From Actinomycetota bacterium (GTDB taxonomy: Bacteria; Actinomycetota; Thermoleophilia; Gaiellales; Gaiellaceae): 64,000 bases of DNA. The position numbers were made by a program, and so were the translations under genes. The stretch covers positions 9,713 to 73,712 of the forward strand of contig PMNA01000023.1 in assembly GCA_003162055.1 (NCBI GenBank), read 5' to 3'. Below are positions 11,163 to 57,471 of the stretch, in pieces (within the stretch, counting starts at the first letter, position 1; every line of letters begins with the position of its first letter). The notes beneath the pieces are model-generated. The model saw nothing but the letters and a program-made list of their open reading frames with translations, did no database searches and was not told the DNA's origin.

Positions 11163-12227
11163 ATGCCGATCTACTTTCTCTGCACCGACGACGAAGTGCC
11201 CTTCGGAGGAATCCGAACCATCTACCGGCACGCCGCCATCCTGCGCCGGCACGGTCTCGACGCCTACGTCGTCCACGAGCACAGCGGCTTCCGTTACCGC
11301 TGGTGCGGGGACGAAGTGCCCGTGCTCGGCTGGTCGAGCAAGCGTTACCGGCGCAAGTCCTCGTCGCTGCCCGCGCGGATCGCGCGTCGCGTCCGCTCTC
11401 ACTACTGGCCGGGGCCGGTAGACCGGCCCTTCGCCCAGCTGAAGGGGCCGGCCAGCTTCTCGATCTCCGAGGACGATGTCGTGGTCGTGCCGGAGATCTA
11501 CGGCCCGCGGATCGCCGAGATCGCCCCGGGGGCGCCGAAGGTGATCTTCAACCAGGGCGCCTACAACACTTTCAACCTCTACCCGCCCGATCCGCGCGGC
11601 TTTCCGTTTCCCTACCGTGACCCCGAAGTCGTGGCGACGATCGTCCCCTCGCTGGACAGCGTTCGCTTCATGGAGCACGCCTTTCCCGGTGCCCGCGTCT
11701 TCCGCGTCCGTAACAGCATCGATACTGGGCTATTTCGACTCGAGAAGGGAAAAGCGCTGCAAATCTCCTACATGCCGCGCCGAAACTGCGAAGACGCGAG
11801 GCGCGTGCTGGCGATTCTCGCGGCTCGGAACGCGCTCGACGGCGTCGAGGTGGTCGCGATCGACGGCTTGCCGGCGGGGGAAGTCGCCGCCGTGCTGCGC
11901 AGGTCGGCCGTCTTCCTCACCCTCGGCTACCAGGAGGGCTTCGGGCTGCCCGGAGTCGAGGCGATGGCGTGTGGTGCGATCGTGGTCGGATTCGACGGCA
12001 ACGGCGGTCGTGAGTATCTCCTGCCCGAGCTCGCCTATCCCGTCCCCACCGCCGACGTGGTCGCGGTCGCGGCTGCCGTTGAGCAGGTGCTGGCCGATTT
12101 CCGCGAGCGGCCGGAGCTTGCGCGCGAGCGGGGGCGGCGAGCGTCGGAGTTCGTCAGGTCGGAGTATTCGCCCGAGGCCGAGGAAGAAGAGTTGCTCGCT
12201 ACCTGGAACGCCATCCTCGCCCGCTGA
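11163..12227 (+). CDS. glycosyltransferase (GT-B fold)
   Basis: 354 aa with MPIYFLCTDDEVPFGGIRTIYRH and YQEGFGLPGVEAMACGAIVVGFDGNGGREYL. Confidence 0.65.
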   Translation: MPIYFLCTDDEVPFGGIRTIYRHAAILRRHGLDAYVVHEHSGFRYRWCGDEVPVLGWSSKRYRRKSSSLPARIARRVRSHYWPGPVDRPFAQLKGPASFSISEDDVVVVPEIYGPRIAEIAPGAPKVIFNQGAYNTFNLYPPDPRGFPFPYRDPEVVATIVPSLDSVRFMEHAFPGARVFRVRNSIDTGLFRLEKGKALQISYMPRRNCEDARRVLAILAARNALDGVEVVAIDGLPAGEVAAVLRRSAVFLTLGYQEGFGLPGVEAMACGAIVVGFDGNGGREYLLPELAYPVPTADVVAVAAAVEQVLADFRERPELARERGRRASEFVRSEYSPEAEEEELLATWNAILAR

Positions 12228-12254
12228 TCGCTGCGGCCCTCGCGGACACGGAAG

Positions 12255-13010
12255 TTACGAAGGCGCTTCTCGGCGCCGGGCCTCGACGAACAGCCCGGTC
12301 GCCTCGCCCCAGCTGATGCCGTGTTGGGCCAACCCGGCGATCGCGACGGAGAACGGATACCAGGCGAGCCGGATTGGGCCGGGAGCGTGCTCCACGCGGT
12401 CGGCGATCTCACTGCCGAGTCGGGCCAGCGAGCGGCTGGTCGGCGTTGTGGCGACGTGCGTGAGACCCGCCTGCTCGAGCTTCGCCGTCAGCTCCTCGAG
12501 TGTGTAGCCGTGCCTGATCTCGCCCGGCCAGATCTTCCGCCCGCGAGCCGAGACGGGTCGCCAACCCTTGTCGGGAACGTGGGCGAGAAAGAGACCGCCC
12601 GGCTTGAGCGCGGCCGCCATCGAGCAGAGCGCGGCCTGGTCATCGGGAATGAGGGTCAGACATTCGAGCGCGAGCGCGGCATCGTAGATCTCCTCGCCGA
12701 GCGACCGGGTAAGGTCGCGCTCCAGCAGCTGGACGTTGTTCACGTTCGCACTGCGCAGCGATTCGGCCGCCTCTTCCAGCACCTGCTTGTCGTTGTCGGC
12801 GGCGTCGATCGACCAGTCGGGATGGCGGAGCCCGAGCCTTTCGGCCAGCAACGCCTCGGAGCAACCGGCGTCGAGCAGCCTGAGCCGACCGCCTCGCGCG
12901 TAGCGCTCGAGCGCGGTCGTCGCGAGGTTGAAGCGGATGCGCCGCGTAGGGCTGGGCAGACGGAGCCGGCGGCCGATTCGTCCGCGCAAGCCGATTCGAA
13001 TGGCCTTCAT
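12255..13010 (-). CDS. class I SAM-dependent methyltransferase
   Basis: 251 aa. Motif I reads LRLLDAGCSEALLAE, followed by an acidic loop (DAADND) and the post-I/II pattern ALKPGGLFLAHVP. ATGA overlap with the upstream gene at 13007-13010. Confidence 0.8.
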   Translation of the reverse strand: MKAIRIGLRGRIGRRLRLPSPTRRIRFNLATTALERYARGGRLRLLDAGCSEALLAERLGLRHPDWSIDAADNDKQVLEEAAESLRSANVNNVQLLERDLTRSLGEEIYDAALALECLTLIPDDQAALCSMAAALKPGGLFLAHVPDKGWRPVSARGRKIWPGEIRHGYTLEELTAKLEQAGLTHVATTPTSRSLARLGSEIADRVEHAPGPIRLAWYPFSVAIAGLAQHGISWGEATGLFVEARRREAPS

Positions 13011-14407
13011 CCGAGCAGTGTAAGTTCGTACGCTTTCCTGGCGCGACGCGACAGCAGGCGGTCGTTGTGCCAGAGCAGCGTGAATTCGCCCTCGAAGAGC
13101 CGGCAGCGTCGCTTGAGCTCGAGCAGCTGCGCGGTCGCTTGCTCCAGCGAGAGCCGGTGGTACTCGAGCAGCGACGCGTCCATGGCGATTAACGGGCTCT
13201 CCCTCAGCTTCAGGCTCCGGCGCGTCCGCAGATTGAAGACCGGATACTCGAAGCAGACGCCGCAGCGGAATCCCGCCCGGTCGGCGAAGGAGAGCGTCGA
13301 ATCGTAGGCGAGCCCCGCGTCTTCCCAGTTCTGCCAGGTGATCGGGTTCTCCCAGCGCAGGTAGTGCTGCCTGCCGCCGAAGGCCGGTTGGTCGATGTCC
13401 TCTTCTTCACAGGCTCGGCGCAGAGCCTGGAATTCGCGCAGCGTCTGTTCGCCGTCCCGGAATGTCCGGTAGCTCGGATGGAGACCGATCTCGTGACCTC
13501 GTTCGTGCAGCGAGCGCAGCAGGCCGCGAATCCAGGGATCGTCGACCGAGTAGGAGCCGTCGATCGCACCGGCCGTCTGAGCGGTGATGAAGTTGAAGGC
13601 GCTGCGCGTGCCGGCCCGCTCGTCCGCATCCATGATGTACGCGAAGCTGTTGTAGAGATCCCGCTCGGGCGAGCGGGAGCGCAGCCCCAGCGATCCGAGC
13701 AGCCGTCGTGTCGCCAGCCAGGGAGCGTGCTCGCGCCGGAGCGCGCGAAGAGCGAGTCGGAACGACTCTTCCCGGCCGATGCGAAACAGAGGGAAGTCGA
13801 CGTCGTGGCTCAGTCGCAACCGGAACTCGTGCTTCGCGCGCGGCAGCCGCGGCCAGAGCCGCGAGAGCGCCCAGCGCAGGATCTCCAGGTACTCGTTGAC
13901 GATCGGGCGATCGAGAAAGCCTTCGGACTGGGCGAGGGAGGCGGCGGCGGGGAAGCGGTCGTACTCGTCTCTGACGGCGCTGACGAGCTCTTCGTAGCGG
14001 CTGAGCATGAAGAACGCGCTCCCGAGCACGTCGAGCCCGAGCTCTATCTCGCCCTCCCGCTCGCAGAGGAATGAGCCGTCGGGCAGCGGAGAGCCGTAGA
14101 TCACCGGGAGCGAGTCGCTGACGGTCACGGCCTCGACGGCAGTCGCGGCGAGCGCCAGCCTCGGCAGAGGACGTGAAGGAAGCGATGCCGCGCTCAGCCA
14201 CTCGTCCGCGGGGGTTTGGAAGAGAGTGTCCGCCAGCACGATGCGCGAAGGCGAAGAGCCGTCGGCAACCGTGATCTCCACGTCGGAGCGGTCTTCGCTC
14301 GAGCTGTCGTAATCGAGGCCCAGGAACTCCCGGAAAATAACGTCGCAGATGTAGCGGCGCTCGGGCTCGTAGCCGGGCGGGTGACGGATGAGGAGGGTTG
14401 CGCTCAC
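13007..14407 (-). CDS. polysaccharide deacetylase-like protein (divergent CE4/NodB-type) with an extra N-terminal domain
   Basis: The ORF is open to 14503. I prefer the GTG at 14407, which forms a GTGA overlap with the stop of the upstream deacetylase and begins VSATLLIRHPPGYEPERRYICD. It has RLSHDVDFPLF where the NodB motif 1 would be, and GHEIGLHPSY (His-containing motif). Confidence 0.5.
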   Translation of the reverse strand: MSATLLIRHPPGYEPERRYICDVIFREFLGLDYDSSSEDRSDVEITVADGSSPSRIVLADTLFQTPADEWLSAASLPSRPLPRLALAATAVEAVTVSDSLPVIYGSPLPDGSFLCEREGEIELGLDVLGSAFFMLSRYEELVSAVRDEYDRFPAAASLAQSEGFLDRPIVNEYLEILRWALSRLWPRLPRAKHEFRLRLSHDVDFPLFRIGREESFRLALRALRREHAPWLATRRLLGSLGLRSRSPERDLYNSFAYIMDADERAGTRSAFNFITAQTAGAIDGSYSVDDPWIRGLLRSLHERGHEIGLHPSYRTFRDGEQTLREFQALRRACEEEDIDQPAFGGRQHYLRWENPITWQNWEDAGLAYDSTLSFADRAGFRCGVCFEYPVFNLRTRRSLKLRESPLIAMDASLLEYHRLSLEQATAQLLELKRRCRLFEGEFTLLWHNDRLLSRRARKAYELTLLG

Positions 14408-36344: not shown

Positions 36345-36884
36345 TTGTTTGAGGTTGGCGAGAAAGTCGTGTACCCGCATCATGGTGCGGGGACGGTGGT
36401 CGAGAAGGAGATGCGAACGGTGCTCGGCCAGAAGCGCGAGTACCTGACGATCAGGATCCTTCACAACGATATGACCGTCCAGGTTCCCAGTGAGAACGCC
36501 GAGCGAGTTGGATTACGCCCGGTGATCGAGGAGGCGGAGATCGACAGCGTCATCGTCGCTCTCACCGCCGGCAAGACCGAGATGCCTAAGAACTGGAACC
36601 GCCGCTTCAAGCACAACCGCGACAAGATGAAGACGGGCGACATCCTCGAGTTGTCGGAAGTAGTGCAGAACCTGTCCCTGCGCGATTTCGAGAAGGGGCT
36701 CTCCACCGGCGAGAAGCAGATGTTCGTCAAGGCCAAGAAGATTCTCTCCAGCGAGCTGATGTATGCGCTCGATCTGAGCGAGGAAGAGGCGGCCGCATGG
36801 TTGGAGAACGTACTGAGCAGGAACGGCAAGAAGTCGTCGCGCTCCAGCTCGAGCAAGCAAGAGGCGGTCGTAGCTTCCGTCTAG
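36345..36884 (+). CDS. carD: CarD/CdnL family RNA-polymerase-binding transcription regulator
   Basis: 179 aa, TTG start. The N-terminal RNAP-interaction domain reads FEVGEKVVYPHHGAGTVVEKE...EYLTIRI. It sits immediately upstream of ispD, as in Actinomycetota. Confidence 0.92.
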   Translation: MFEVGEKVVYPHHGAGTVVEKEMRTVLGQKREYLTIRILHNDMTVQVPSENAERVGLRPVIEEAEIDSVIVALTAGKTEMPKNWNRRFKHNRDKMKTGDILELSEVVQNLSLRDFEKGLSTGEKQMFVKAKKILSSELMYALDLSEEEAAAWLENVLSRNGKKSSRSSSSKQEAVVASV

Positions 36885-36894
36885 TCATGGCGGA

Positions 36895-37623
36895 GTGCTC
36901 GCCGTCGAGGAGACAGCGGTCGGCGGATCGACTGTGACGAGCGCGTCGGTTTGGGCAGTCGTCTGCGCCGCGGGAGCGGGAAAGCGGCTCGCCGGAACGC
37001 GGCCGAAGGCGTTCGCGGCACTGGCCGGGCGTCCGCTGTTGGCCGAGAGCCTCGAGCGGCTAGACAGCTGCGAAGCGATCGACGGTATCGTCGTCGCCGC
37101 GCCGCCGGGCTGGGAGGAGGCCACAATTCTCCTCTCCGAGGAGCTCGACTGCGACAAGGTCAGCACGGTGGTGCGCGGAGGCCGTAAGCGCGGCGAGAGC
37201 GTTCGCTTGGCCCTGGCGGAGATTCCCGAGGAGGTCGAGCAGGTGCTCGTCCACGACGCCGCCCGTCCGCTCGTGAGCGCCGAGGTGATAAGGCGCGTGC
37301 TCGGCCCGCTGAGCCAGGATTGGGACGCGGTCGTGCCGGCGCTGCCGCTGACCGACACCATCAAGCTCGTCGCAGGCGAGCGTGTCGTCGAAACACCCGA
37401 GCGCAGCTCGCTCGTCGCCGTCCAGACACCGCAGGCCTTTTGCGCCGAGGCGCTTCGCGCCGCCTACGCCGAGGAGCACGACGAGGCGACCGACTGCTCG
37501 ACGTTGGTCGAGCGGCGCGGCGGTCGAGTCATCTGGGTCGAGGGCGACCTGCACCTGCACAAGGTGACCACGGCAGACGATCTGCTTCTGGTCGAGAACT
37601 GGCTGACGAAAGAGAGAAGATGA
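36895..37623 (+). CDS. ispD: 2-C-methyl-D-erythritol 4-phosphate cytidylyltransferase
   Basis: It has WAVVCAAGAGKRL (the P-loop-like PAAGxGxR motif), VLVHDAARPL and AVQTPQAF. The start is more likely the GTG at 36934 than 36895. Confidence 0.9.
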   Translation: MLAVEETAVGGSTVTSASVWAVVCAAGAGKRLAGTRPKAFAALAGRPLLAESLERLDSCEAIDGIVVAAPPGWEEATILLSEELDCDKVSTVVRGGRKRGESVRLALAEIPEEVEQVLVHDAARPLVSAEVIRRVLGPLSQDWDAVVPALPLTDTIKLVAGERVVETPERSSLVAVQTPQAFCAEALRAAYAEEHDEATDCSTLVERRGGRVIWVEGDLHLHKVTTADDLLLVENWLTKERR

Positions 37624-38099
37624 GCGAGCTCAGGGTGGGCCTCGGCATCGACGCGCACGCCTTCGCGGCGGGAGTGCCGCTTGTGCTTGGCGGGGTCGCC
37701 ATTGAGCACGGGCGCGGTCTCGCCGGGCACTCCGACGGTGACGTGATCGCCCACGCCCTGATCGACGCTTTGCTCGGTGCGGCCGGACTGGGCGACATCG
37801 GCTCGCTCTTTCCTTCCAGCGACGAGCGCTGGCGAGGCGCCGACTCGCTCGATCTGCTCGCCCGTGCCTACGGCGAGGTGCGCGGCGCCGGCTGGGCGCT
37901 GGTCAACGCCGACTGCGTTCTCATCGGCGAGGAGCCGCGGATCGCAGCCCGGCGCGAGGAGATGCAGGAGCAGCTGGCCGCAGCGCTGTCGGTCGAGCCG
38001 GGATGCGTGGCCGTGCGGGCCACGACTACCGACGGGCTCGGCTTTGCGGGCCGTGGTGAGGGCTTGGCCGCCCAGGCTGTGGCGTTGCTGGAAAGATAA
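37620..38099 (+). CDS. ispF: 2-C-methyl-D-erythritol 2,4-cyclodiphosphate synthase
   Basis: 160 aa from the ATG at 37620 (ATGA overlap with the ispD stop). Motifs are RVGLGIDAHAF, GHSDGDVIAHALIDALLGAAGLGDIGSLFP and TTTDGLGFAGRGEG. Confidence 0.95.
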   Translation: MSELRVGLGIDAHAFAAGVPLVLGGVAIEHGRGLAGHSDGDVIAHALIDALLGAAGLGDIGSLFPSSDERWRGADSLDLLARAYGEVRGAGWALVNADCVLIGEEPRIAARREEMQEQLAAALSVEPGCVAVRATTTDGLGFAGRGEGLAAQAVALLER

Positions 38100-38725: not shown

Positions 38726-40240
38726 TTACCCGGTCGGTTGAACCACGCTGAGCGGACGCGGGCTGGCGGTCAAGGTGCCCGTCCCGAGCTCACCCTCGTC
38801 GTTTCCGCCCCAGCACTTGACCGCGCCGGCGGCGATCAGCGCACAGCTGTGAAGAGCGCCGGAGCTGATCGAGACTGCGTGCTTGATCCCGAGCACCGTG
38901 ACGGGCTCGGCGCTGTCCCGGAACGTTCCGTTACCGAGCTCTCCGTACTGATCCGCGCCCCAGCACTTGACCGCGCCGTCGGCGATCAGAGCGCAGGTGT
39001 GAAAGCCGCCCGAGCTGATCGAAACAGCGTTCGTGATACCCGGTACCTGAACCGGTATCGCGCTGTTCAGCAGCGGTTTGGAGGAGAGGTCGCTGGCGGT
39101 GATGTAACCCCAGCACTCGACCGTGCCGCCGGAGATGAGCGCGCAGGTGTGAAAGGCGCCGGCGCTGATCGCGATCGCAGTCGTGATCCCAACGACGCGG
39201 GTGGGAGACGGAACTGCGTGCGGTCGTGTCGGGCTGACCGTGCCGTTTCCGATCTGGCCGTCTGCGTTATAGCCCCAACACTCGATCGTGCCGCCGGAGA
39301 TCAGAGCGCAGGTGTCCAGGAAGCCGGCGCTGACGGCGACGGCATTCGAGACGGTGCTGACCCGCACCGGGCTCGAGACTCCGTAGGGCTTGGCCCAGTT
39401 CAGGCTGTTGATGCCGAGCTCTCCCGTCTCGTTGTCACCCCAGCAGTAGAGCGAGCCGTTCGCGAGCAGGGCGCAGGTGTGGGCCGCACCCGAGCTCGTG
39501 GCGACGACGCCGCTCAGTCCGCCGACGGAGATCGGGGTCGAGCTGTTCGTCAACGTGCCGTTGCCCAACTCGCCGTCCGAGTTGGTCCCCCAGCAGCTGA
39601 TCGTGCCGGCGGTAGAGACGACACAGCTGTGCTTGTAGCCGCTGTTCACCGCGATCGCGCCTGAGATTCCGCCCACGGAGACGGGCATCGAGCTGTTCAT
39701 CGCAGAGTTGTCGCCAAGCTCACCGTCGAGGTTGTAGCCCCAGCACTTGACGCCGCCGCCGCGGACGAGGATGCAGGTCTGCGCGCCGCCGGCGCTCACG
39801 CTTGTGGCGTCCTTGACCGGCTGGGCGGCGAAGATCGAGAATCTCAGCGAAACGAGATTACGGTCGGAGCGGAGACGCAGACGGTAGGCGCCGGCTCTGA
39901 TCGCCCTCTGACCGAAGATGTGCTTGACAGTCGTGCTGTGGGTACCTGTGAAGCGTCCCTTCAGCCTGACGGAGCGAAGTGCGATCCATCTTCCGTCCCG
40001 CTTGCGCTGCAGCAGGTAGGAGAAGCGGCTGCTCGGGTGGTGGAAGCGGTAATCGAGCCCGATCTCGCTTGCCTGTGTGGGAGCCAGTCTCGTGGCGGCC
40101 AGCCTGGCGCTGAGCCTTCCTGCGCCGGGAGCCGTTCTCGCCGCCGGGGACGAGGCAATTCGGCCGCCGAGGGGCAACATCGCCGCGCCTAAAAGGACGA
40201 CACCGAAGACGGTGGAACGAAGCCTTAGGTGGCTAGACAT
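38726..40240 (-). CDS. secreted RCC1-repeat protein (single 7-bladed propeller) with N-terminal Ig-like module
   Basis: The ORF is open to 40312. I prefer the ATG at 40240 (MSSHLRLRSTVFGVVLLGAAMLPLG, a signal peptide). There are seven blades of type xxCWGxNxxGELGxG. Confidence 0.85.
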   Translation of the reverse strand: MSSHLRLRSTVFGVVLLGAAMLPLGGRIASSPAARTAPGAGRLSARLAATRLAPTQASEIGLDYRFHHPSSRFSYLLQRKRDGRWIALRSVRLKGRFTGTHSTTVKHIFGQRAIRAGAYRLRLRSDRNLVSLRFSIFAAQPVKDATSVSAGGAQTCILVRGGGVKCWGYNLDGELGDNSAMNSSMPVSVGGISGAIAVNSGYKHSCVVSTAGTISCWGTNSDGELGNGTLTNSSTPISVGGLSGVVATSSGAAHTCALLANGSLYCWGDNETGELGINSLNWAKPYGVSSPVRVSTVSNAVAVSAGFLDTCALISGGTIECWGYNADGQIGNGTVSPTRPHAVPSPTRVVGITTAIAISAGAFHTCALISGGTVECWGYITASDLSSKPLLNSAIPVQVPGITNAVSISSGGFHTCALIADGAVKCWGADQYGELGNGTFRDSAEPVTVLGIKHAVSISSGALHSCALIAAGAVKCWGGNDEGELGTGTLTASPRPLSVVQPTG

Positions 40241-40385
40241 TGCGTGAAAGGGTTCCCCTCGAAGCCCGCAGTCCGCTCTGGTCGAGATTGGCTCTTCCAG
40301 ACGTTCTTTCACGGTAGCTGCAGCGCTAAGGGCTACGTCGAGCGGGCTCGGGCGCCGAAGGATCTAGCGAACGGTCGGGTGCCGA

Positions 40386-41100: not shown

Positions 41101-43665
41101 TCAGCTCAGGAGGCTGACGACTTCGACCGGGGTCGAGCTGTAGTCGAGCGCGCCGATCCCCAGCTCGCCGGCGGTGTTGTCGCCCCAGCATTTGACCGCG
41201 CCGCCGCTTGAGAGCAGGGCGCAACTGTGCGAAGCGCCGGCGCTGACGTCGAGCGCGCCCGTGATCGCACTCACCGCGACCGGGCTGGAGCTGTTCGTGG
41301 TCGAGCCGTTGCCAAGCTTGCCTTTCGTGTTGTCGCCCCAGCAGTCGACAACGCCGGTTGAGAGGACGGCGCAGCTGTTCGACGAGCCGCTGCTGATAGT
41401 GAGGGCACCGCTGATGCCGCTCACAGCTACCGGCGCCGAGCTGCTAGTGGTGGAGCCGTTTCCCAGCTCGCCGGCCGAGTTGTTACCCCAGCACTTGATC
41501 GTCCCATCGGAGAGCAGAGCACAGCTGTGGTCGTAACCGGCGGCAACGGCCTTCGCGCCTGTGATACTGCCCACCGCGACCGCTGTCGTACTGTCGGTGG
41601 TGGAGCCGTTGCCGAGCTGACCGGCGGAGTTGTCGCCCCAGCACTCGATCGTTCCGTCGGAGAGCAGCGCGCAGCTGTGGTCGTAGCCGGCAGCAACGGC
41701 CTTCGCGGTGGTGATACCGCTGACCTCGACCGGGCTCGCGCTATCGGTGGTCGTGCCGTTGCCGAGCTGGCCCTTGGAGTTGCTGCCCCAGCAGTAGACC
41801 TTGCCCGAGGCGACGGCGCAGCTGTGCGACGAGCCCGCGCTGATACCGAGCGCGCCCGTGATGGTGGCGACCGCGACCGGGCTCGGGCGGTTCGTCTTCG
41901 TTCCGTCGCCGAGCTGGCCGGCGGCGTTGCCCCCCCAGCACTCGACCGTTCCATCGGTGAGCAGGGCGCAGCTGTGTGACGAGCCGGCGGCGATGCTCTT
42001 GGCGGTAGTCGTGAGACCGCTGACCGCGACCGGAGTCGGGCTGCTCGTCGTGGAGCCGTTGCCGAGCTGACCGGCGGCGTTACTGCCCCAGCACTCGACC
42101 GTTCCGTCCGAGAGAAGAGCGCAGTTGTGTGTGTCGCCGGCAGCGATTCCGCCGGCGCTCGTGAGCACGCTAGCGACGGGCGTCGCGCTGAAGTTCTGAG
42201 CACCGCCACCGAGCTGGCCGGTGTCGTTCTTGCCCCAGCACTTGACCTTGCCGCCCGACAGGAGCGCGCAGGCGTGACTACTGGCGCCGGCGCCCGCGCT
42301 GGCGCTGACCGCTGTCGCCGCGCTGATACCGCTCACCGCGACGGGGGTCGAGCTGTCGGCGGTGGTGCCGTTACCGAGCTGGCCGCTCGAGTTCTTGCCC
42401 CAGCACTTGACCTGCTTGTTGGCGAGCCGAGCGCAACCGAAGCCGCTGCCGGCACTGACCGAAGTGGCGGTCGAGATGGACTTGACCGTAGCGGGCGTGG
42501 GCTTGTAGTCGATGCCGCTCTTGTCCTTGCGGCCGTGGCTCGTCGCTCCGTCGCCCAGCGCGCCCATGTCGCCGCGGCCCCAGCACTTGACGGTGTGGTT
42601 GGAGAGGACGGCGCAGCTGATGTCGTTACCGGCGCTCACTGCGATCGCCGTCTTGATCCCGCTGACCGTCACGGGCTTCCTGCTGTTCGCCGTCTTGCCG
42701 TTACCGAGCTGACCGAAGTGATTGTTGCCCCAGCAGGCGACTTTGCCGCTCGAGAGCAGGGCGCAGCTGTGGCGGTAGCCGGCGCTGATCGCCTTGGCCG
42801 CGATGCCGCTGATGCTGAGCGGGAGCATGCTGTAGCTCTTACTACCTCCGATGTCGCCGGAGTTGTTGCGACCCCAGCACTTGACCGCGCCGCCGGCGAG
42901 CAGAGCACAGGAATGGTCGGCGCCGGAACTGACCGCGACAGCGTTCACTATCCCGCTCACCGAGATCGGGATCGAGCTAATGCTCGGAACTTTGAAGCCG
43001 CTGCCGAGCTTGCCGTTTGCGTTGTCGCCCCAGCACTTGATCAATCCGCCCGCGACGACAGCGCAGCTGTTGAACCCCCCGACCGAGAGGGACTTGGCGT
43101 TCTTGAGCCCGTTGGCTACGACTGGAGTGAGGCTGCCCGTGGTCGAGCGGTTACCGAGCTGGCCGTAGGCGTTGCCCCCCCAGCACCTGATCCTGCCGCC
43201 CGAGATGATGGCGCAACTGTGCGTATCCGCGGCGCCGACCGGGGCGGTCGCTGCCTTGAGCGCCTTGACGACGTCGAACAAGAGAGTGGTGCGGGAGGCG
43301 CCGGCGCTGAGCACGAGGCGGTAGTGACCGAGCGCGATCTTCCTCTTCCCGTTGACCTTGGCGATGATCATGCTGCGGCTGCCCTTGAAGCTTCCGCTGT
43401 GGCTGACGCTCCGTAGCAGGCGCCAGGACGTCCCCTTCTTGAGCGAGAGCTGGTAGCCGAAGCTCGAGCTCTTGCCCGAGAAGCGATAGAGAAGGCGCAC
43501 CGAGCCGATCTCGTTCGGCGCGAAGGGCGATTCGCTCAGGCTCGCGCTGATCTTGACGGCTTGCGCGGCAGCTGGAGCTGAAGCCGCCGACAGTCCGGCG
43601 ATCAGGGTCGAGAGGAGAAGTAAGCCGAGCAGCGAGCCAATGACTGGACGACGGTGAGCGCGCAT
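41101..43665 (-). CDS. secreted RCC1-repeat protein (14 blades, i.e. two propellers) with N-terminal Ig-like module
   Basis: The ORF is open to 43740. I prefer the ATG at 43665 (MRAHRRPVIGSLLGLLLLSTLIAGLSAASAPAAAQA). I counted 14 CWGxNxxGQLG blades. The N-terminal ~100 aa are colinear with the N-terminus of 38726-40240. Confidence 0.88.
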   Translation of the reverse strand: MRAHRRPVIGSLLGLLLLSTLIAGLSAASAPAAAQAVKISASLSESPFAPNEIGSVRLLYRFSGKSSSFGYQLSLKKGTSWRLLRSVSHSGSFKGSRSMIIAKVNGKRKIALGHYRLVLSAGASRTTLLFDVVKALKAATAPVGAADTHSCAIISGGRIRCWGGNAYGQLGNRSTTGSLTPVVANGLKNAKSLSVGGFNSCAVVAGGLIKCWGDNANGKLGSGFKVPSISSIPISVSGIVNAVAVSSGADHSCALLAGGAVKCWGRNNSGDIGGSKSYSMLPLSISGIAAKAISAGYRHSCALLSSGKVACWGNNHFGQLGNGKTANSRKPVTVSGIKTAIAVSAGNDISCAVLSNHTVKCWGRGDMGALGDGATSHGRKDKSGIDYKPTPATVKSISTATSVSAGSGFGCARLANKQVKCWGKNSSGQLGNGTTADSSTPVAVSGISAATAVSASAGAGASSHACALLSGGKVKCWGKNDTGQLGGGAQNFSATPVASVLTSAGGIAAGDTHNCALLSDGTVECWGSNAAGQLGNGSTTSSPTPVAVSGLTTTAKSIAAGSSHSCALLTDGTVECWGGNAAGQLGDGTKTNRPSPVAVATITGALGISAGSSHSCAVASGKVYCWGSNSKGQLGNGTTTDSASPVEVSGITTAKAVAAGYDHSCALLSDGTIECWGDNSAGQLGNGSTTDSTTAVAVGSITGAKAVAAGYDHSCALLSDGTIKCWGNNSAGELGNGSTTSSSAPVAVSGISGALTISSGSSNSCAVLSTGVVDCWGDNTKGKLGNGSTTNSSSPVAVSAITGALDVSAGASHSCALLSSGGAVKCWGDNTAGELGIGALDYSSTPVEVVSLLS

Positions 43666-43777
43666 TGGGCGGGAATGATAGCCCCGGAGTCGCGGCTCGA
43701 CCGCTTCAACCAATAAGAAGGCCACGAGAACCGGCACCATCCGCGAAGGCCCGAAGCGGCGTGCTCGGCCGCCGGAG

Positions 43778-47462: not shown

Positions 47463-49268
47463 ATGCGTAAGACCGCCAAAGTGAACACGACCCTCGACGG
47501 CCACCAGCTGTTCGAGGCGCTCCTGGCCGGGTTGCACATGGTCCAGCGAAAGCAGGACTACCTGAACAAGATCAACGTCTATCCGGTACCGGATGGCGAT
47601 ACCGGCACCAACATCACCGCGACACTGTCCTATGCGCTCGAGACGGCGGAGGTGACGGATTCGGCGGGGGAGACGATGTCCTCGATCGCCGACGCCGCCC
47701 TGGTTGGTGCGCGCGGCAACTCGGGCATCATCTTCGCCCAGTTTCTGAGTGGGCTCTCGGAGGCTATGCGCGACGCGCAGAATGTGGCCAAGGAGCACTT
47801 CGTCCACGCCGCCGAGAATGCCCGCCTCCGCGCCTACGAGGCCGTCACGAGGCCCAAAGAGGGAACGATGCTCACGGTCATGCGCGCCTGGGCCGAGGCG
47901 CTGCACCATGAGGCCGACTCCGCCCAGTCGATCGCGGAGCTGCTGCGCAAGGCCGGGCCCGCACTGGCCGACTCGCTGGAAAAAACGCGCGACATGCTTC
48001 CCCAGCTAAAGGCGGCCGGGGTCGTTGATGCCGGCGCGAGCGGTTTCGTGGAGTTCATCGCCGGGGCCGAGCGCTTCATCAACGGCAAGGTCAAGGCCCC
48101 CTTCCTGGCGCGCAGGATGGGCTCGCACAAGCTCTCCTTGGGCGACAAGATCGAGCTGCACGAAAGCGGCGAGGTCCGCTTCCGCTACTGCACCGAGGCG
48201 CTGATCGCGGGTCAGGCAATCGATCGCGAGGTGCTCCGGAGTAGCCTCGAGCCCTTCGGCGACAGCCTGATCATCGCCGGCACGGGCGAGCAGGTGCGGA
48301 TCCACATCCACAGCGATCAGCCGGCTCAGGTGTTCGCCTCGCTGACCTCGACCGGGCGGGTCGTGCAGCAGAAGGTCGACGACATGCTCCTGCAGTACGA
48401 GGTCGCGCACCGGCGCAAGTATCCGATCGCCATCGTCACCGACTCGACCTGCGATCTGCCGCGCGAACTGATCGACCAGTACCAGATCCAGGTCGTGCCG
48501 CTGCACATCATCGCCGGCGAGAACGAGTATCTGGACAAGCTGACGATCGACTCCGAGGAGTTCTTCGATCTGGCCGACCGCTCGCCGCAGTTCCCGACCT
48601 CGTCGCAGCCCTCGATCGGCCTCTTCACCCGCATCTTCTCCTACCTCTCCACCTACTACGACTCGATCATCGCCATCCATGTTGGCGGGGGGATCAGCGG
48701 AACGGTCAGCACGGGCGCGCAGGCGGCTAAGTCGCTTGACGGTGCCAAGCAGATCTCGGTGATCGACTCGCGGCATATCTCCGGCTCACTCGGCCTGATC
48801 GTGCTGCGCGCCGCGGAGGCGGTGGCCGCGGGCAAGAGCCACGACGAGGTCGTCAGCGAGGTCGAGAGCTACATCCGGAAGGCCCAGCTCCTGGTCAGCG
48901 TGCACACGCTCGAGTACTTCGTAAAGGGCGGACGGATCAAGCCCATGGCGGGAGCGCTCGGCAAGTTGCTCAATCTGAAGCCGATCATCTCCGTCGACGC
49001 CGAGGGCAATCCGATCCGCTTTGGCAAAGCCTTCAGCGAGCGACGGAACGTCGCCAAGATCGTCCGCATGGTGGCGCGCCGGCATGCCGAAAGTCCGCTC
49101 CGCTGTTACGCGGTCGTGCACGGGCACGATCTCGAGGCCGGGAAATATCTCGCCGCGAAGCTCGAGAAAGAACTCGGATTCCCGCCGCTCTTCATCGAGG
49201 AGATTGCTCCGGTGCTGGCCCTTCATGCCGGCCGCGGAACCACCGCGGTCGTCTCGATGCAGGAGTAG
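47463..49268 (+). CDS. DhaL(Dak2)-domain / DegV-domain fusion protein (FakA N-terminal half fused to a FakB-like fatty-acid-binding domain)
   Basis: 601 aa. The N-terminus has YLNKINVYPVPDGDTGTN and GARGNSG (DhaL nucleotide site). The middle has FRYCTEALI...GDSLIIAGTGEQVRIHIHSD (as in FakA/YloV). The C-terminal ~280 aa read IAIVTDSTCDLP...VVPLHI...FPTSSQPSIG...ISGTVSTG (DegV). Confidence 0.85.
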   Translation: MRKTAKVNTTLDGHQLFEALLAGLHMVQRKQDYLNKINVYPVPDGDTGTNITATLSYALETAEVTDSAGETMSSIADAALVGARGNSGIIFAQFLSGLSEAMRDAQNVAKEHFVHAAENARLRAYEAVTRPKEGTMLTVMRAWAEALHHEADSAQSIAELLRKAGPALADSLEKTRDMLPQLKAAGVVDAGASGFVEFIAGAERFINGKVKAPFLARRMGSHKLSLGDKIELHESGEVRFRYCTEALIAGQAIDREVLRSSLEPFGDSLIIAGTGEQVRIHIHSDQPAQVFASLTSTGRVVQQKVDDMLLQYEVAHRRKYPIAIVTDSTCDLPRELIDQYQIQVVPLHIIAGENEYLDKLTIDSEEFFDLADRSPQFPTSSQPSIGLFTRIFSYLSTYYDSIIAIHVGGGISGTVSTGAQAAKSLDGAKQISVIDSRHISGSLGLIVLRAAEAVAAGKSHDEVVSEVESYIRKAQLLVSVHTLEYFVKGGRIKPMAGALGKLLNLKPIISVDAEGNPIRFGKAFSERRNVAKIVRMVARRHAESPLRCYAVVHGHDLEAGKYLAAKLEKELGFPPLFIEEIAPVLALHAGRGTTAVVSMQE

Positions 49269-49285
49269 CCGGCCCAGGCCGGCCG

Positions 49286-50053
49286 CTAGCGGCGTCGCGG
49301 CAGAGGCACCAAGATACTCGTCCGCCGCTTGTACTCGCGGTAGGCGGGATCGGCGCCGTACCTGGCCTCGGCGCTCTTCTCCAGCAGCGGAATACCGCTC
49401 ACGAAGAGCAGGAGCACGGTGATGAAGATGGGCCCGATCGCCACGACGAAGGCCGCCCCGTCGAGGAACGGCACGGCGTAGACGAACAGCCCCCACCAGA
49501 CGAGCATCTCGCCGAAGTAGTTGGGGTGGCGGGAGTAGCGCCAAAGGCCGTTCGAGACGAAGCGCCCGCGGTTTTCGTCTTTGCCCTTGAAGGCCGACTT
49601 CTGGGAGTCGCTGACAGCCTCGACCAGGAGCCCGACAAACCAGAGTGCCACGCCGGCGATTGCCCAGGTCCCGAAGCCCGGAGCGCCGTTCTGGTCGAGC
49701 AAGTAGGAGACCGGAAGCATGATCACGCCGACAGAAATGGCCTGCAAAAGCCAGAAGTTAGCGAAGCGAAGCGGGTGGTTGCGCATCTCGTCGAAGCGGT
49801 GGTCGATCTTGATCCGCAGGATGCGTCCGAACAGGTAGCCGCCCAGTCTGAAGGCCCAGAGGAGCACCATCAGGGCGGCAATCAGCTGCACGGGCTTGTG
49901 CGCGCCCAGAAACGGAAGCACGAGCGCCAGCACGGCGAACGAGAGGCTGTAGGAGAGGTCGGTGACGACGTCGGTCTTGCGAATCGCGGCGATGACGAAG
50001 AAGACCGTATTCACGCCCAGGGCAACCAGGTACGAGACGATGATCGCGGTCAT
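49286..50053 (-). CDS. DUF1295 / steroid-5-alpha-reductase-like polytopic membrane enzyme
   Basis: 255 aa with about 6-7 TM segments. The signature C-terminal region reads GLWRYSRHPNYFGEMLVWWGLF. Confidence 0.8.
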   Translation of the reverse strand: MTAIIVSYLVALGVNTVFFVIAAIRKTDVVTDLSYSLSFAVLALVLPFLGAHKPVQLIAALMVLLWAFRLGGYLFGRILRIKIDHRFDEMRNHPLRFANFWLLQAISVGVIMLPVSYLLDQNGAPGFGTWAIAGVALWFVGLLVEAVSDSQKSAFKGKDENRGRFVSNGLWRYSRHPNYFGEMLVWWGLFVYAVPFLDGAAFVVAIGPIFITVLLLFVSGIPLLEKSAEARYGADPAYREYKRRTSILVPLPRRR

Positions 50054-50074
50054 CCAGTCATCCAGTCATCCGGT
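50051..50074 (-). repeat. three tandem octamers (minus strand ACCGGATG-ACTGGATG-ACTGGATG) at the heliorhodopsin/DUF1295 junction
   Basis: The plus strand reads catccagt catccagt catccggt. See the findings for the resulting chain of ATGA overlaps. Confidence 0.95.
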
Positions 50075-50869
50075 CAGAGTGGAGGCGAAGATCTGCCAGG
50101 CCAGCAGGCTCTTGGCAACCAGCGAGAGCACGAGATAGGCGCGCTCGCCGAAGAGGTAGTCGCGCCAGGGCCCGACACGCTTGTACTGCAGCAGCATGTT
50201 CGCCGCGAAGCTGTTGAAGAGGATGAACAGCGAGACGAAGATGGCGAAGACGAAGCCGGGCACGTTGCTCGTCTGGTTCTGGCAGTAGCCGATCTGGATC
50301 GCGATCGCGATCCAGGGCACCGCGCCGGCGATCGAGCCGAAGACGAAGGGGAGCCAGATCACCGGCCGGCCGGATCGGTTCGCGCGCTCCGTCGCCGCAC
50401 CGAACATGATCATTGCCGCGTTCACCCCGAAGAGCGCGATCAGGGCCGCCAGGTCACTGATGCCGGTGAGCATGGCGATCAGCACGATCATCAGTGAGGC
50501 GCTGAACGAGTACTCGAGCCAGCGCGCCGGGCTGCGCTCGATCGCCAGGTTGCGCTCGTACCAGCGGTGGATGCGCGGCGCCGCCACCAAGGCGTGGTCG
50601 AGCGCGGCCAGAAGCAGGAAGAGCGCCACCATCGGCCCGATACGCAGGTTGTAGATGTTGTTGGTGCTTGGCTTGGTTCCCGGCGGGCCCTTGAGGAGGC
50701 TGAGGGTCAGCGGCAGCGTGAAGGAGTTGGAGAGGGCGAGGATGACGATGGCCTGGGCGGCGTGCAGCACAGCCAGCGAGCCGTTCCAGATGCGCAGTCG
50801 CCGGTAGGCGGCGATCTCTGCGGCGACTGCCTTCTCGGTAAGCGGCTTCGAGCTCGGCGAAGAACTCAT
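50066..50869 (-). CDS. heliorhodopsin (inverted-topology retinal-binding 7-TM photoreceptor)
   Basis: 267 aa, 7 TM segments. It is colinear with my recollection of heliorhodopsin 48C12: LAVLHAAQAIVILAL (TM1 His), LLLAALDHALV (TM2 His), RWLEYSFSASLMIVLIA (TM3 counter-ion Glu), FGVNAAMIMFG, IAGAVPWIAI, LFNSFA and GERAYLVLSLVAKSLLAWQIFASTL (TM7 Schiff-base Lys). Confidence 0.85.
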   Translation of the reverse strand: MSSSPSSKPLTEKAVAAEIAAYRRLRIWNGSLAVLHAAQAIVILALSNSFTLPLTLSLLKGPPGTKPSTNNIYNLRIGPMVALFLLLAALDHALVAAPRIHRWYERNLAIERSPARWLEYSFSASLMIVLIAMLTGISDLAALIALFGVNAAMIMFGAATERANRSGRPVIWLPFVFGSIAGAVPWIAIAIQIGYCQNQTSNVPGFVFAIFVSLFILFNSFAANMLLQYKRVGPWRDYLFGERAYLVLSLVAKSLLAWQIFASTLTG

Positions 50870-50956
50870 CCCTACCAGTCTCTCACCCAGGCGGGAGAAG
50901 CCAAACTCGGAGTTTGTTTATCCCGTCCATAACTCTGTCCGCTTTACTTTCGGGAG

Positions 50957-51733
50957 ATGGATATCTCGAATCAACCAGTGCCCGCCTACAGGCCGCCCGA
51001 GCGACCGCCCGAGCCTCCGGAGATGCCGAAGTTTCTCAAGCGGCGCTCGACAGTTGTAATGGCGATCGGTTTCGGCGTAATGCTTCTGATCGCCCTGGGT
51101 CGGTTCGGTCCCGGTAGCGCCACGATCAGCGCCAAGGGCGTCGGGCCGCTCGAGATCGGCAAGGCGACGAGGACGCAGATGCAGAGCTTCGACAGGGGTC
51201 GCATCGACTTCTGGTTGACGCAGAAGGGCAATCCTCCGCTCCATTTCAAGGGCCAGCTCTGGCAGTACGGGTGTATCGGCCAGAGAACGAGTTTCGGCGC
51301 GAGCTGCCGCACGCTCTACGGCATCACAAACGGGCACGTAGCAACCGTCGAGACGACCAGCCCGCGGTTCTTCACCAGCGCGAAGACTCATGTTGGAACG
51401 CCGTTATCGCAGGCCCGCAGGCAGGAGCACGGCAAGTGGACGGGCTGGAATGTCAAGTGCCCGCACCTCATCCTGGCGGCGCCCAAAGGCGTTGTCTTCT
51501 TTGCCTCGGTCTCGAAAGACAAGTTCTATTCGAAGAGCTTCGTGAGCGGCTTTTACCTCAGTGCGACGCCGTCTTCGTTCGCCTACTGCAGCGGGCAACT
51601 GGGCCGAGCCGCGGACAATCGAGACGGCCAGGTTGCTGGTCAGGGGCTTTCGCCCCGACGACTGGCGAGATCTGCACGAGTATCCACCCTCCTGGAAGCT
51701 GCTGGAACGCCTGTCGCTGCGACGAGAGGGTGA
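50957..51733 (+). CDS. hypothetical membrane-anchored protein (3' end probably corrupted)
   Basis: 258-aa ORF. A Pro-rich N-terminus and a TM segment (VVMAIGFGVMLLIAL) precede a globular part with 4 Cys. The last ~45 codons overlap the GNAT remnant in another frame and look non-native (Ala/Arg/Gly-rich). Confidence 0.4.
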   Translation: MDISNQPVPAYRPPERPPEPPEMPKFLKRRSTVVMAIGFGVMLLIALGRFGPGSATISAKGVGPLEIGKATRTQMQSFDRGRIDFWLTQKGNPPLHFKGQLWQYGCIGQRTSFGASCRTLYGITNGHVATVETTSPRFFTSAKTHVGTPLSQARRQEHGKWTGWNVKCPHLILAAPKGVVFFASVSKDKFYSKSFVSGFYLSATPSSFAYCSGQLGRAADNRDGQVAGQGLSPRRLARSARVSTLLEAAGTPVAATRG

Positions 51734-51839
51734 TTTCAGGGGATTTGCGTTTTTCCGCCGCGACGAGGGCAGCGAGCCGCTCTGGCATGACGCCTACCAG
51801 TACGCGCTGCTAGCCGAGGAGTGGAGGGCTCTCGGCTAA
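51615..51839 (+). pseudogene. GNAT (RimJ/RimL-type) N-acetyltransferase remnant with internal deletion
   Basis: The translation TIETARLLVRGFRPDDWRDLHEY (a typical GNAT N-terminus) runs directly into LERLSLRREGDFRGFAFFRRDEGSEPLWHDAYQYALLAEEWRALG (a typical C-terminus). The ~90-aa acetyl-CoA-binding core is missing and there is no obvious start codon. Confidence 0.45.
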
Positions 51840-52921
51840 CGCGTTACCTCTCGGGCGGTCGTTTCGCTCGCCAGGGCCGGCTCTCCGGGAGGAGTACTCG
51901 GGCGGTGACGGCGCCAGGTCGCGCCCGCGATCAGGCCGAGCACGAGCGTCGGCACGAGCGTGAGGAAGCGGTAGAGGAGCACGGCCGCCACGACGCCCGC
52001 GTTCGAGCCGCCGAAACCGGTCAGAACGGCGATCAGGCCCAGCTCGACGACGCCGACCCCGCCCGGCGTGATCGGCAGGGACTGCGCCAGGCGAACGATC
52101 GAGAAGGCCGCGAAGGCTTCGATCAGATCGACCTGTCCGCCGCTGACACCGAGCACGCGCAGGCTGGCCAGCAGGACTAAGAAGGTGGTCAGCTGCCCGG
52201 CCAGTGTCCAGAAGGTGAGTAGATACCAGCGCCGGGCGATCAGGCCGACCGTCTCGTTGCGGAAGCGGACGAAGGATGACCCGTTGAAGCGGGACGGTCC
52301 GCGCCGGATCAACCGCAGCAGAAAAGTGGCGACGCGGGCAGCGAGGTCGCCGGCCTTTCGCGTGATGCGCTTGCTGGCCAGGCCGAGCGCGAATCCGCCG
52401 GCGAAGACGCAGAAACAGGCCAACCCGACCAGGGCGACCGTTTGCAGAAGAGGGTTCGCGCCTCCTTCGAGGGTGAGAAGGGCGAGCGCGACGGTCGGAA
52501 AGCCAAACAGGGCGAGTTGATTCCAGACCCCGGTGAGCGTCGTAGCTCGGGCGATGTCCTGCGGCTTAAAGCCCCAACCTTTGAGCATCGCCAGCGAGAC
52601 GGCTATGCCCACCGTCGGGCCGCCGGGCGCGATGTAGGTGGAGGCGGTCGATGCCTGGTTGACGACGAAGGCCTGGCGATAGCGAAGATGGGGCAGCGCA
52701 ACCATCCAGGTCGGCCCGTAGGTGCTGAGGTTGAGGACGACCGCCGCCGCCAGGAGCGCGGCCTCGCTCCAGGAGAGGCGTTCGAGCACGTGCCAGACAG
52801 CTCCGTAGTTGGCGATCTGGGGCAGCACGAAAGCGAAGGTCGCAACGACGAAGGCCAAGCCGATCGCGATCCCGATCGTAGGGCGAAGCAGTTTGTGCTG
52901 CCGGTGCCTGGAGACCGTCAT
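51836..52921 (-). CDS. lysylphosphatidylglycerol-synthase-TM-region-like (UPF0104, flippase-like) membrane protein
   Basis: 361 aa with about 8 TM segments. The C-terminal signature reads ITPGGVGVVELGLIAVL. Confidence 0.75.
   Translation of the reverse strand: MTVSRHRQHKLLRPTIGIAIGLAFVVATFAFVLPQIANYGAVWHVLERLSWSEAALLAAAVVLNLSTYGPTWMVALPHLRYRQAFVVNQASTASTYIAPGGPTVGIAVSLAMLKGWGFKPQDIARATTLTGVWNQLALFGFPTVALALLTLEGGANPLLQTVALVGLACFCVFAGGFALGLASKRITRKAGDLAARVATFLLRLIRRGPSRFNGSSFVRFRNETVGLIARRWYLLTFWTLAGQLTTFLVLLASLRVLGVSGGQVDLIEAFAAFSIVRLAQSLPITPGGVGVVELGLIAVLTGFGGSNAGVVAAVLLYRFLTLVPTLVLGLIAGATWRRHRPSTPPGEPALASETTAREVTR

Positions 52922-56145: not shown

Positions 56146-57471
<1,326 letters not shown>

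Follow-up and report, generated by a model that had tools for sequence, protein, structure and literature searches.

Heliorhodopsins (HeRs) are abundant, but what they do physiologically has been established in only a few cases. The partner proteins reported for them differ by organism: AbHeR modulates glutamine synthetase (PMC9529153), TfHeR a photolyase (PMC9769723) and OcHeR an ABC transporter (PMC11109279), and each of these HeRs is encoded beside the protein that it modulates. Chazan et al. (bioRxiv 10.1101/2021.02.16.431466) described DegV together with DUF2177, often with DUF1295, as most characteristic of HeR neighbourhoods, a pattern that recurs across phyla and was seen mainly in Firmicutes and Chloroflexi. 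They also noted Dak2-DegV fusions beside HeRs and hypothesised light-dependent membrane-lipid remodelling or the repair of oxidative damage. Here, we describe a HeR gene in a 64-kb stretch of the genome of an uncultured soil or peat actinobacterium of the Gaiellaceae (contig PMNA01000023.1, 66% GC; the whole stretch is called the window below). Its product is, with near certainty, a genuine heliorhodopsin, and its gene is coupled to a DUF1295 gene lying next to a fused fatty-acid kinase. A first-pass annotation made from the letters of this stretch had proposed the HeR and pointed to the glutamine synthetase and photolyase reports, both of which exist; the DUF1295 coupling and the kinase neighbour were absent from it.

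The gene and the presumed promoter region upstream of it are as follows.

50066..50869, minus strand: HeR gene, 267 amino acids, ATG start; supported by Pfam, NCBIfam and PDB sequence matches, an AlphaFold2 model searched with Foldseek, and the ratio of nonsynonymous to synonymous substitution rates (dN/dS)
50870..50956, no strand: divergent intergenic region of 87 nucleotides (nt), presumed promoter region, upstream of HeR and shared with a hypothetical gene at 50957-51733

The open reading frame (ORF) matched the Pfam model PF18761 (Heliorhodopsin) from end to end, with 316.6 bits against a gathering score of 26.7 bits (E=1.2e-94, model positions 1-242 of 242). In NCBIfam, the equivalog NF038020 ("heliorhodopsin HeR") concurred at 303.5 bits (cut-off 100 bits), while the type-1 rhodopsin model PF01036 (Bac_rhodopsin) reached 13.5 bits, under its gathering score of 24.6 bits. 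The top match among PDB sequences was TaHeR (6is6, E=1.8e-63), and the entries of 48C12 (6su3, 6uh3, 9ljj) followed at about 1e-62. All four peptides on which the first-pass annotation had based its proposal (AVLHAAQ, ALDHALV, RWLEYSFSASLMIVLIA and GERAYLVLSLVAKSLLAWQIF) were found in the translation. The gene has evolved under purifying selection, with a dN/dS of 0.15-0.30 against six orthologs. It is a routine addition to a known family that standard pipelines can annotate automatically, because close homologs already carry the NCBI name "heliorhodopsin HeR [Gaiellaceae bacterium]".

The AlphaFold2 model, computed from an alignment of 46 clade members, had a mean predicted local distance difference test score (pLDDT) of 90.3 and a predicted template-modelling score of 0.83. 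It consists of seven helices (residues 12-46, 77-109 with a kink at 97, 117-134, 140-163, 173-200, 205-230 and 238-265) and a beta-hairpin between helices A and B (strands 51-58 and 68-76), and so agrees with the seven transmembrane (TM) segments claimed earlier. In the Foldseek search against the PDB, the top 10 hits were all HeR structures, with template-modelling scores of 0.83-0.92, a root-mean-square deviation of about 2 Å and 44-48% identity. The model superimposed on 48C12 (PDB 6SU3/6SU4/6UH3) with scores of 0.84-0.91 at about 2 Å; over the crystal structures of 48C12 and TaHeR together the range was 0.84-0.92. The best type-1 rhodopsin was found at E=3.5e-4, and type-1 structures scored at most 0.63 with 10-17% identity.

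The functional residues of 48C12 (PMC9726877, PMC7049168) were mapped onto the window protein by pairwise alignment, in which the identity was 50.2% to 48C12 (241 aligned residues) and 46.9% to TaHeR of the Thermoplasmatales archaeon SG8-52-1 (PDB 6IS6, 7U55, 7CLJ). Of the 16 network residues, 15 were conserved. These were N16 (N29 in the window protein), H23 (H36), Q26 (Q39), H80 (H92), Y92 (Y104), R104 (R116), W105 (W117), E107 (E119), Y108 (Y120), S111 (S123), E149 (E161), E230 (E242), S237 (S249), K241 (K253) and W246 (W258). The sole exception was Ser76, which is replaced by Ala88. The Schiff-base lysine, the counter-ion glutamate and the histidines of TM1 and TM2 named in the first-pass annotation fell where they should, since K253, E119, H36 and H92 align with K241, E107, H23 and H80 of 48C12 and with K238, E108, H23 and H82 of TaHeR. 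The placement of the counter-ion was validated independently, because in PDB entry 7clj, annotated as the E108D mutant of TaHeR, the Asp sits in the column of E119. The protein thus has a single Glu counter-ion in helix C, with S249 (S237 of 48C12) at the place of the second Asp of type-1 rhodopsins. Among the 120 close homologs defined below, the Schiff-base Lys was kept in 119, the remaining one showing a gap, and the positions of K241, E107, H80, S111 and S237 were invariant or nearly so.

The positive-inside rule predicts the inverted topology that had been proposed: by the helices of the model, 17 Lys and Arg residues lie on the side of the N-terminus and the BC, DE and FG loops, and 3 on the side of the AB, CD and EF loops and the C-terminus. 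This computed placement puts the N-terminus inside and the C-terminus outside. The fenestration residues retained were F175, S179, G182, F218, N219 and A222, with F162, G169, F206, N207 and A210 of 48C12 conserved among them and Cys166 exchanged for Ser179. Besides the exchange at Ser76, the window protein differs from 48C12 in Phe79 (Asp91), Asn101 (Ser113), Gln213 (Met225), Ile170 (Ala183) and the dimer-interface residue Tyr179 (Gln192), and its N-terminus is about 13 residues longer. Asn101 of 48C12 has been described as the sole side chain between the Schiff-base cavity and the cytoplasm, that is, as a gate; the Ser found at this place is a minority state, present in 13 of the 120 close homologs.

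At E<=1e-10, a word-index search scored 5,595 proteins, of which the top 120 (64-91% identity), referred to as close homologs, all came from the Gaiellaceae clade, and several bear the NCBI name given above. An exhaustive search of representatives yielded 3,222 clusters (50% identity) at E<=1e-3. An identical protein was encoded in 129 blocks of a public collection of assemblies from ENA and JGI metagenomes, on contigs reaching 0.2-1 Mb. The nearest species-representative genomes were metagenome-assembled genomes of Gaiellaceae and Gaiellales from Microflora Danica, SPRUCE peat and Stordalen fen, whose HeRs share 68-90% identity with the window protein, followed by HeRs of Chloroflexota (about 50%) and Microbacteriaceae (about 44%). 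These closest genomes place the host in the Actinomycetota, a monoderm phylum. Our literature searches found no discussion of Gaiellales rhodopsins.

The loss of Ser76 is accompanied by a second exchange in TM2. Directly ahead of the TM2 His stands Asp91, in place of Phe79 in 48C12 and Ala81 in TaHeR, so that the motif reads A-x-x-D-H (AALDH) instead of the S-x-x-[A/F]-H of the solved HeRs (SATAH in the archaeal TaHeR). Ala88 and Asp91 occurred together in 12 of 12 loci of the Gaiellaceae clade and in all 120 close homologs. Among the nearest 50%-identity representatives that cover TM2 (about 130), the pair was found in 32 and ranked second in frequency behind S..A-H (42). The only other GTDB loci with the pair were L019 and L027, both non-Gaiellaceae and both lacking the TM1 His. 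The Ser triad (S76, S111, S237) is therefore incomplete, with S123 and S249 kept and Ala88 at position 76. Ser76 was termed highly conserved by Kovalev et al., who did not describe the Ala variant. Tarlachkov et al. noted the Ser76 to Ala exchange in HeRs of the Geodermatophilaceae (bioRxiv 10.1101/2024.05.16.594530). Ala at this position occurs widely in nature and does not disqualify a protein from the family. A description of Asp before the TM2 His was not found in the HeR literature examined.

The closest actinobacterial comparison is BagHR of Blastococcus aggregatus, which belongs to these Geodermatophilaceae HeRs; it absorbs at 559 nm and did not pump, and the residue at position 79 is not given in the preprint (bioRxiv 10.1101/2024.05.16.594530). 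In a quantum mechanics/molecular mechanics study, Ser76 accounted for a blue shift of about 9 nm. Because of this shift and of the absorption of BagHR, a slightly red-shifted, non-pumping pigment would be the default expectation for the window HeR. Residues i and i+3 share a helix face; therefore, the side chain of Asp91 may extend into the gap that the lost Ser hydroxyl leaves near E119 and H36.

The genes on the downstream side of the HeR gene are listed from the junction outwards.

50050..50071, minus strand: junction of the HeR stop and the DUF1295 start, with the tandem 8-mer CTGGATGA (mRNA sense), read from the sequence
49286..50053, minus strand: DUF1295 membrane protein, 255 amino acids, PF06966 at 227.8 bits over its full length; ICMT / steroid-5-alpha-reductase superfamily
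49269..49285, no strand: 17-nt spacer between convergent stops, with the GC palindrome CCGGCC-CA-GGCCGG
47463..49268, plus strand: Dak2 / FakA-middle / DegV fusion, 601 amino acids, matched in Pfam, in NCBIfam (YloV/FakA/FakB1/DegV) and by FakA and FakB sequences of the PDB

DUF1295 follows immediately downstream of HeR in the same orientation, and 12 nt separate the two genes in the window. In four sister species (loci L006, L007, L009 and L016) the stop of HeR and the start of DUF1295 overlap as ATGA, a classic signature of translational coupling, and the two genes probably form a bicistronic operon with DUF1295 as the second gene. In the window, the ancestral overlap has been expanded by CTGGATGA into a chain of ATGA-overlapped three-codon "MTG*" mini-ORFs. 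There were two extra copies in the window and in L001, one in L003 (10800-10812) and none in the sister species, so the copy number differs among contigs with an identical HeR protein. Like HeR, DUF1295 is under purifying selection (dN/dS 0.21-0.27). It showed weak similarity to Steroid_dh, ICMT and PEMT in Pfam and to MddA and ICMT in NCBIfam, and had no match among PDB sequences. A fungal membrane ene-reductase, UsgR, has been described as similar to DUF1295 and steroid 5-alpha-reductases (PMC8597850).

The Dak2-FakA_M-DegV fusion, convergent (tail-to-tail) with DUF1295, is by its domain content effectively a single-chain fatty-acid kinase that would combine the kinase part of FakA with a FakB-like lipid-binding domain. 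The palindrome between the two stops is a possible bidirectional terminator hairpin without a T-tract, and the scan for consensus terminators did not flag it. Around the operon, the scan for sigma-70 promoters and intrinsic terminators returned nothing above shuffled expectation, the consensus being uninformative for a high-GC actinobacterium. On the metagenome contig L004, which carries the identical HeR, the fusion gene (11602-13407) was called as two ORFs, a Dak2 protein of 170 amino acids and a FakA_M-DegV protein of 424 amino acids; this suggests a frameshift or nonsense variant in that population, or a sequencing error.

The arrangement is an instance of the HeR/DegV/DUF1295 pattern published by Chazan et al. 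and is not new as a pattern. It resembles their neighbourhoods in having DUF1295 directly downstream and a Dak2-DegV fusion adjacent, and it differs in its host lineage, in its restriction to a shallow sub-clade and in lacking DUF2177. The HeR genes of Geodermatophilaceae, unlike this locus, lack neighbouring DegV genes and mostly run opposite to the genes beside them. With AbHeR, TfHeR and OcHeR, the locus shares the principle of a HeR encoded beside a possible target; their partner families were not matched near this HeR, and the candidate here is an integral membrane enzyme. In Chlamydomonas, the DUF1295 gene Cre02.g139500 and the DUF2177 gene Cre14.g629061 are SAK1-dependent and singlet-oxygen-induced, alongside the cyclopropane fatty-acid synthases CFA1 and CFA2 (PMC4067076, Table 5), a link absent from Chazan et al. 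A second supposed parallel was dropped: UfaO of Rhodobacter sphaeroides (RSP1090, of the singlet-oxygen sigma-E regulon), which we had taken for a DUF1295 protein, is DUF1365 according to PMC7380195.

Taken together, the most satisfactory explanation, and in our view a rather probable one, is a functional HeR sensor with DUF1295 and membrane lipid as its candidate output. In the opsin, which has seven TM helices and its N-terminus inside, K253 would be the attachment site of all-trans retinal, E119 the sole counter-ion and the H36/H92 pair a part of the proton-accepting network. By analogy with characterised prokaryotic HeRs the protein is likely to be a non-pumping sensor or regulator, which would cycle slowly and alter the activity of a partner by direct contact. 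The best candidate partner in this lineage would be the DUF1295 membrane enzyme, and the output would be a light-dependent modification or remodelling of membrane lipids, possibly for photo-oxidative protection. We favour this output because DUF1295 probably shares a message with HeR and the FakA-DegV fatty-acid kinase lies next door; taken by itself, the assignment of the DUF1295/lipid pathway as the output is tentative and may well prove wrong.

Several observations weigh against this explanation. The neighbourhoods were compared by tblastn with the window neighbours, by a census of the Pfam families in 146 ORFs that flank HeR at 43 GTDB loci, and in four further clade members. The pairing of HeR with DUF1295 and FakA-DegV was confined to the sub-clade of the window (L006, L007, L009, L016) and is phylogenetically shallow; it was missing from L008, L010, L011 and P0025/L049, where the HeR still shares about 80-82% identity, and from every locus farther away. 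DUF2177, of all families the one most particular to HeR neighbourhoods, was matched neither in the 52 large ORFs scanned with Pfam across the window (those under about 90 amino acids and weaker alternative frames lay outside the scan) nor in the top 25 families of the flanking ORFs. No experiment is known to connect a HeR with DUF1295. The additional buried Asp91 could mean a different photochemistry. Finally, as claimed in the first-pass annotation, the same 52 ORFs contained none of the crt/blh-type families (phytoene synthase or desaturase, lycopene cyclase, Blh/BCD, carotenoid oxygenase, polyprenyl synthase), small ORFs being unscanned. We had also considered whether the adjacency of DUF1295, DegV and DUF2177 is general among the relatives of this HeR, and rejected it, since tblastn and the census showed it in its own sub-clade only.

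The alternative that survives best is a genuine HeR sensor whose partner is encoded elsewhere, for example a glutamine synthetase, a photolyase, an ABC transporter or a kinase pathway, so that the DUF1295 operon reflects shared light or oxidative-stress regulation or chance. The diversity of the characterised partners is in keeping with this, as are the shallow distribution of the DUF1295 pairing and the highly variable neighbourhoods of the clade. At L051 (5222-6738, 4458-5117, 10585-11502), the HeR P0107 (68% identical) stands in a PAS / DUF1622 / HeR string in which DUF1622 overlaps the HeR start by 4 nt, while L050 and L052 have no obvious HeR partner nearby. In the vicinity of the L051 string lie an AhpC-TSA peroxiredoxin and a MerR/B12-binding (CarH-like) regulator. 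This regulator is potentially light-responsive, and the light/oxidative-stress context of L051 differs from that of the window. Against a partner elsewhere, the Pfam scan found no glutamine synthetase, photolyase or ABC transporter family near HeR within the block between ispF and cysS. Moreover, the ATGA overlap in four species argues for stoichiometric co-production rather than loose co-regulation, and DUF1295 and DegV recur near HeRs of other phyla. We therefore rate this alternative as unlikely, though deserving serious attention.

A bolder extension of the sensor explanation joins three proposals, which we consider improbable in combination. The Gaiellaceae "A...D-H" HeRs would be a separate functional subtype in which D91 replaces the interaction of Ser76 and alters proton handling; in the sub-clade, HeR would form a membrane complex with the coupled DUF1295, in which light gates lipid ene-reduction or methylation; and the single-chain fatty-acid kinase would supply the substrates. 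The outcome would be a pre-emptive photo-oxidative membrane defence in a non-phototrophic soil actinobacterium.

The same signature might instead point to an activity of HeR itself, namely light-driven proton transport or an enzymatic reaction in the Schiff-base cavity, with Asp91 beside His92 as an extra proton acceptor or relay. Asp91 provides a carboxylate buried in TM2 directly beside His92, the Ala/Asp pair is invariant in the close homologs and frequent among the representatives, and in the window protein Ser takes the place of the cavity-gating Asn101. Proton transport has been reported for the viral V2HeR3 (PMC12873467), and enzymatic roles have been considered by Chazan et al. and Kovalev et al. 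On the other hand, BagHR, from the family noted for Ser76 to Ala, did not pump, the remaining network of the window protein is canonical, and the A..D-H motif is found both with and without the TM1 His. An intrinsic activity of this kind is thus very improbable.

As to the chromophore, HeR-only genomes usually have no chromophore pathway or blh, and their pigments nevertheless form when retinal is given (Chazan et al., bioRxiv 10.1101/2021.02.16.431466). The missing retinal pathway is therefore the usual HeR-only situation and not peculiar to this locus, and retinal is probably scavenged or made by another route. It is argued in a 2025 preprint that exogenous xanthophylls, too, are recruited by HeRs. 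That the protein is an apo-protein or decaying relic in a host unable to make retinal, with any role independent of light, could be read from the lack of crt/blh and carotenoid oxygenase genes in the window and from the frameshifted HeR genes of some Geodermatophilaceae (bioRxiv 10.1101/2024.05.16.594530), but the relic reading is contradicted by the conservation data (the intact frame under purifying selection, the invariance of the Schiff-base Lys, counter-ion and pocket residues across the 120 homologs, the recurrence of the exact protein in 129 collection blocks) and the window covers only 64 kb of the genome, so that we give it hardly any credence.

The coordinates of backbone genes around the variable block are as follows.

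36345-36884: carD
36895-37623: ispD
37620..38099, plus strand: ispF (YgbB, 204.5 bits), left landmark of the variable block, with a 4-nt overlap over the stop codon of ispD
56146..57471, plus strand: cysS (tRNA-synt_1e, 359 bits); right landmark, followed by an rlmB-like SpoU methylase

The Pfam matches confirmed the position of HeR between ispF and cysS. To the left of the block, the backbone of the window consists, in order, of the end of lysS, a polysaccharide cluster of about 30 kb, clpC, radA, carD, ispD and ispF, and to the right of cysS, the rlmB-like SpoU methylase, a sigma factor, a HisKA protein, a Cys/Met PLP enzyme and a GGDEF-HD protein. The block holds two RCC1-repeat proteins, a DUF6636 protein, a CDF transporter, a chagasin-type inhibitor, hypotheticals, the FakA-DegV fusion, DUF1295, HeR, an LPG_synthase_TM/flippase-like protein, PGA_cap, a cupin and a DsbA-like thioredoxin.

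In many Actinobacteria the canonical order carD-ispD-ispF-cysS-rlmB is contiguous, e.g., Rv3583c-Rv3579c of M. tuberculosis, and about 18 kb is therefore inserted here. The "accessory block" of the first-pass annotation is nevertheless apt only in part: GC and GC at third codon positions (GC3) of the block genes match those of the flanks (GC3 of 0.92 for HeR and 0.89 for DUF1295), and sister species keep HeR in this slot between ispF and cysS with changing companions (L049 covers the cysS side alone). A recent horizontal acquisition of the block was rejected on the same grounds. The block is a long-standing variable region in which HeR is a stable resident, and not a recent island.

Other genes of the window were also recorded. 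The RCC1-repeat (WD40_RLD) proteins, of 528 (38726-40312, minus strand) and 879 amino acids (41101-43740, minus strand), lie in the variable block, and RCC1-like genes also flank the HeR block in the relatives L001-L005 and L049. The LPG_synthase_TM / MprF-flippase-like membrane protein (51836-52921, minus strand), two genes upstream of HeR, is another lipid-related neighbour, and a similar gene recurs beside HeR in L006 and L009 and, weakly, in L010. The polysaccharide-biosynthesis cluster (about 856-30774) contains many GT1/GT2/GT4 glycosyltransferases, Wzy_C, a Polysacc_synt flippase, a GNVR/ParA-like tyrosine-kinase-type protein, a Bac_transf priming transferase, a polysaccharide deacetylase and GH26-like proteins, as well as a surface protein of 957 amino acids with PKD/DUF7402/PIG-L.

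The two-gene coupled HeR-DUF1295 unit, together with the fused fatty-acid kinase, offers a compact test case from a lineage abundant in soils and peat. With it, two or three cloned genes would suffice for a direct test of the published hypothesis that HeR controls membrane-lipid remodelling. The Ala76/Asp79 pair (48C12 numbering), invariant in the clade, is, in addition, a cheap mutagenesis target for the proton-acceptor network of HeRs. If the combined proposal of a separate subtype in a membrane complex were true, it would assign a biochemical function to HeR and to DUF1295 (by extension also to DUF2177) and would tie them to the singlet-oxygen response of Chlamydomonas.

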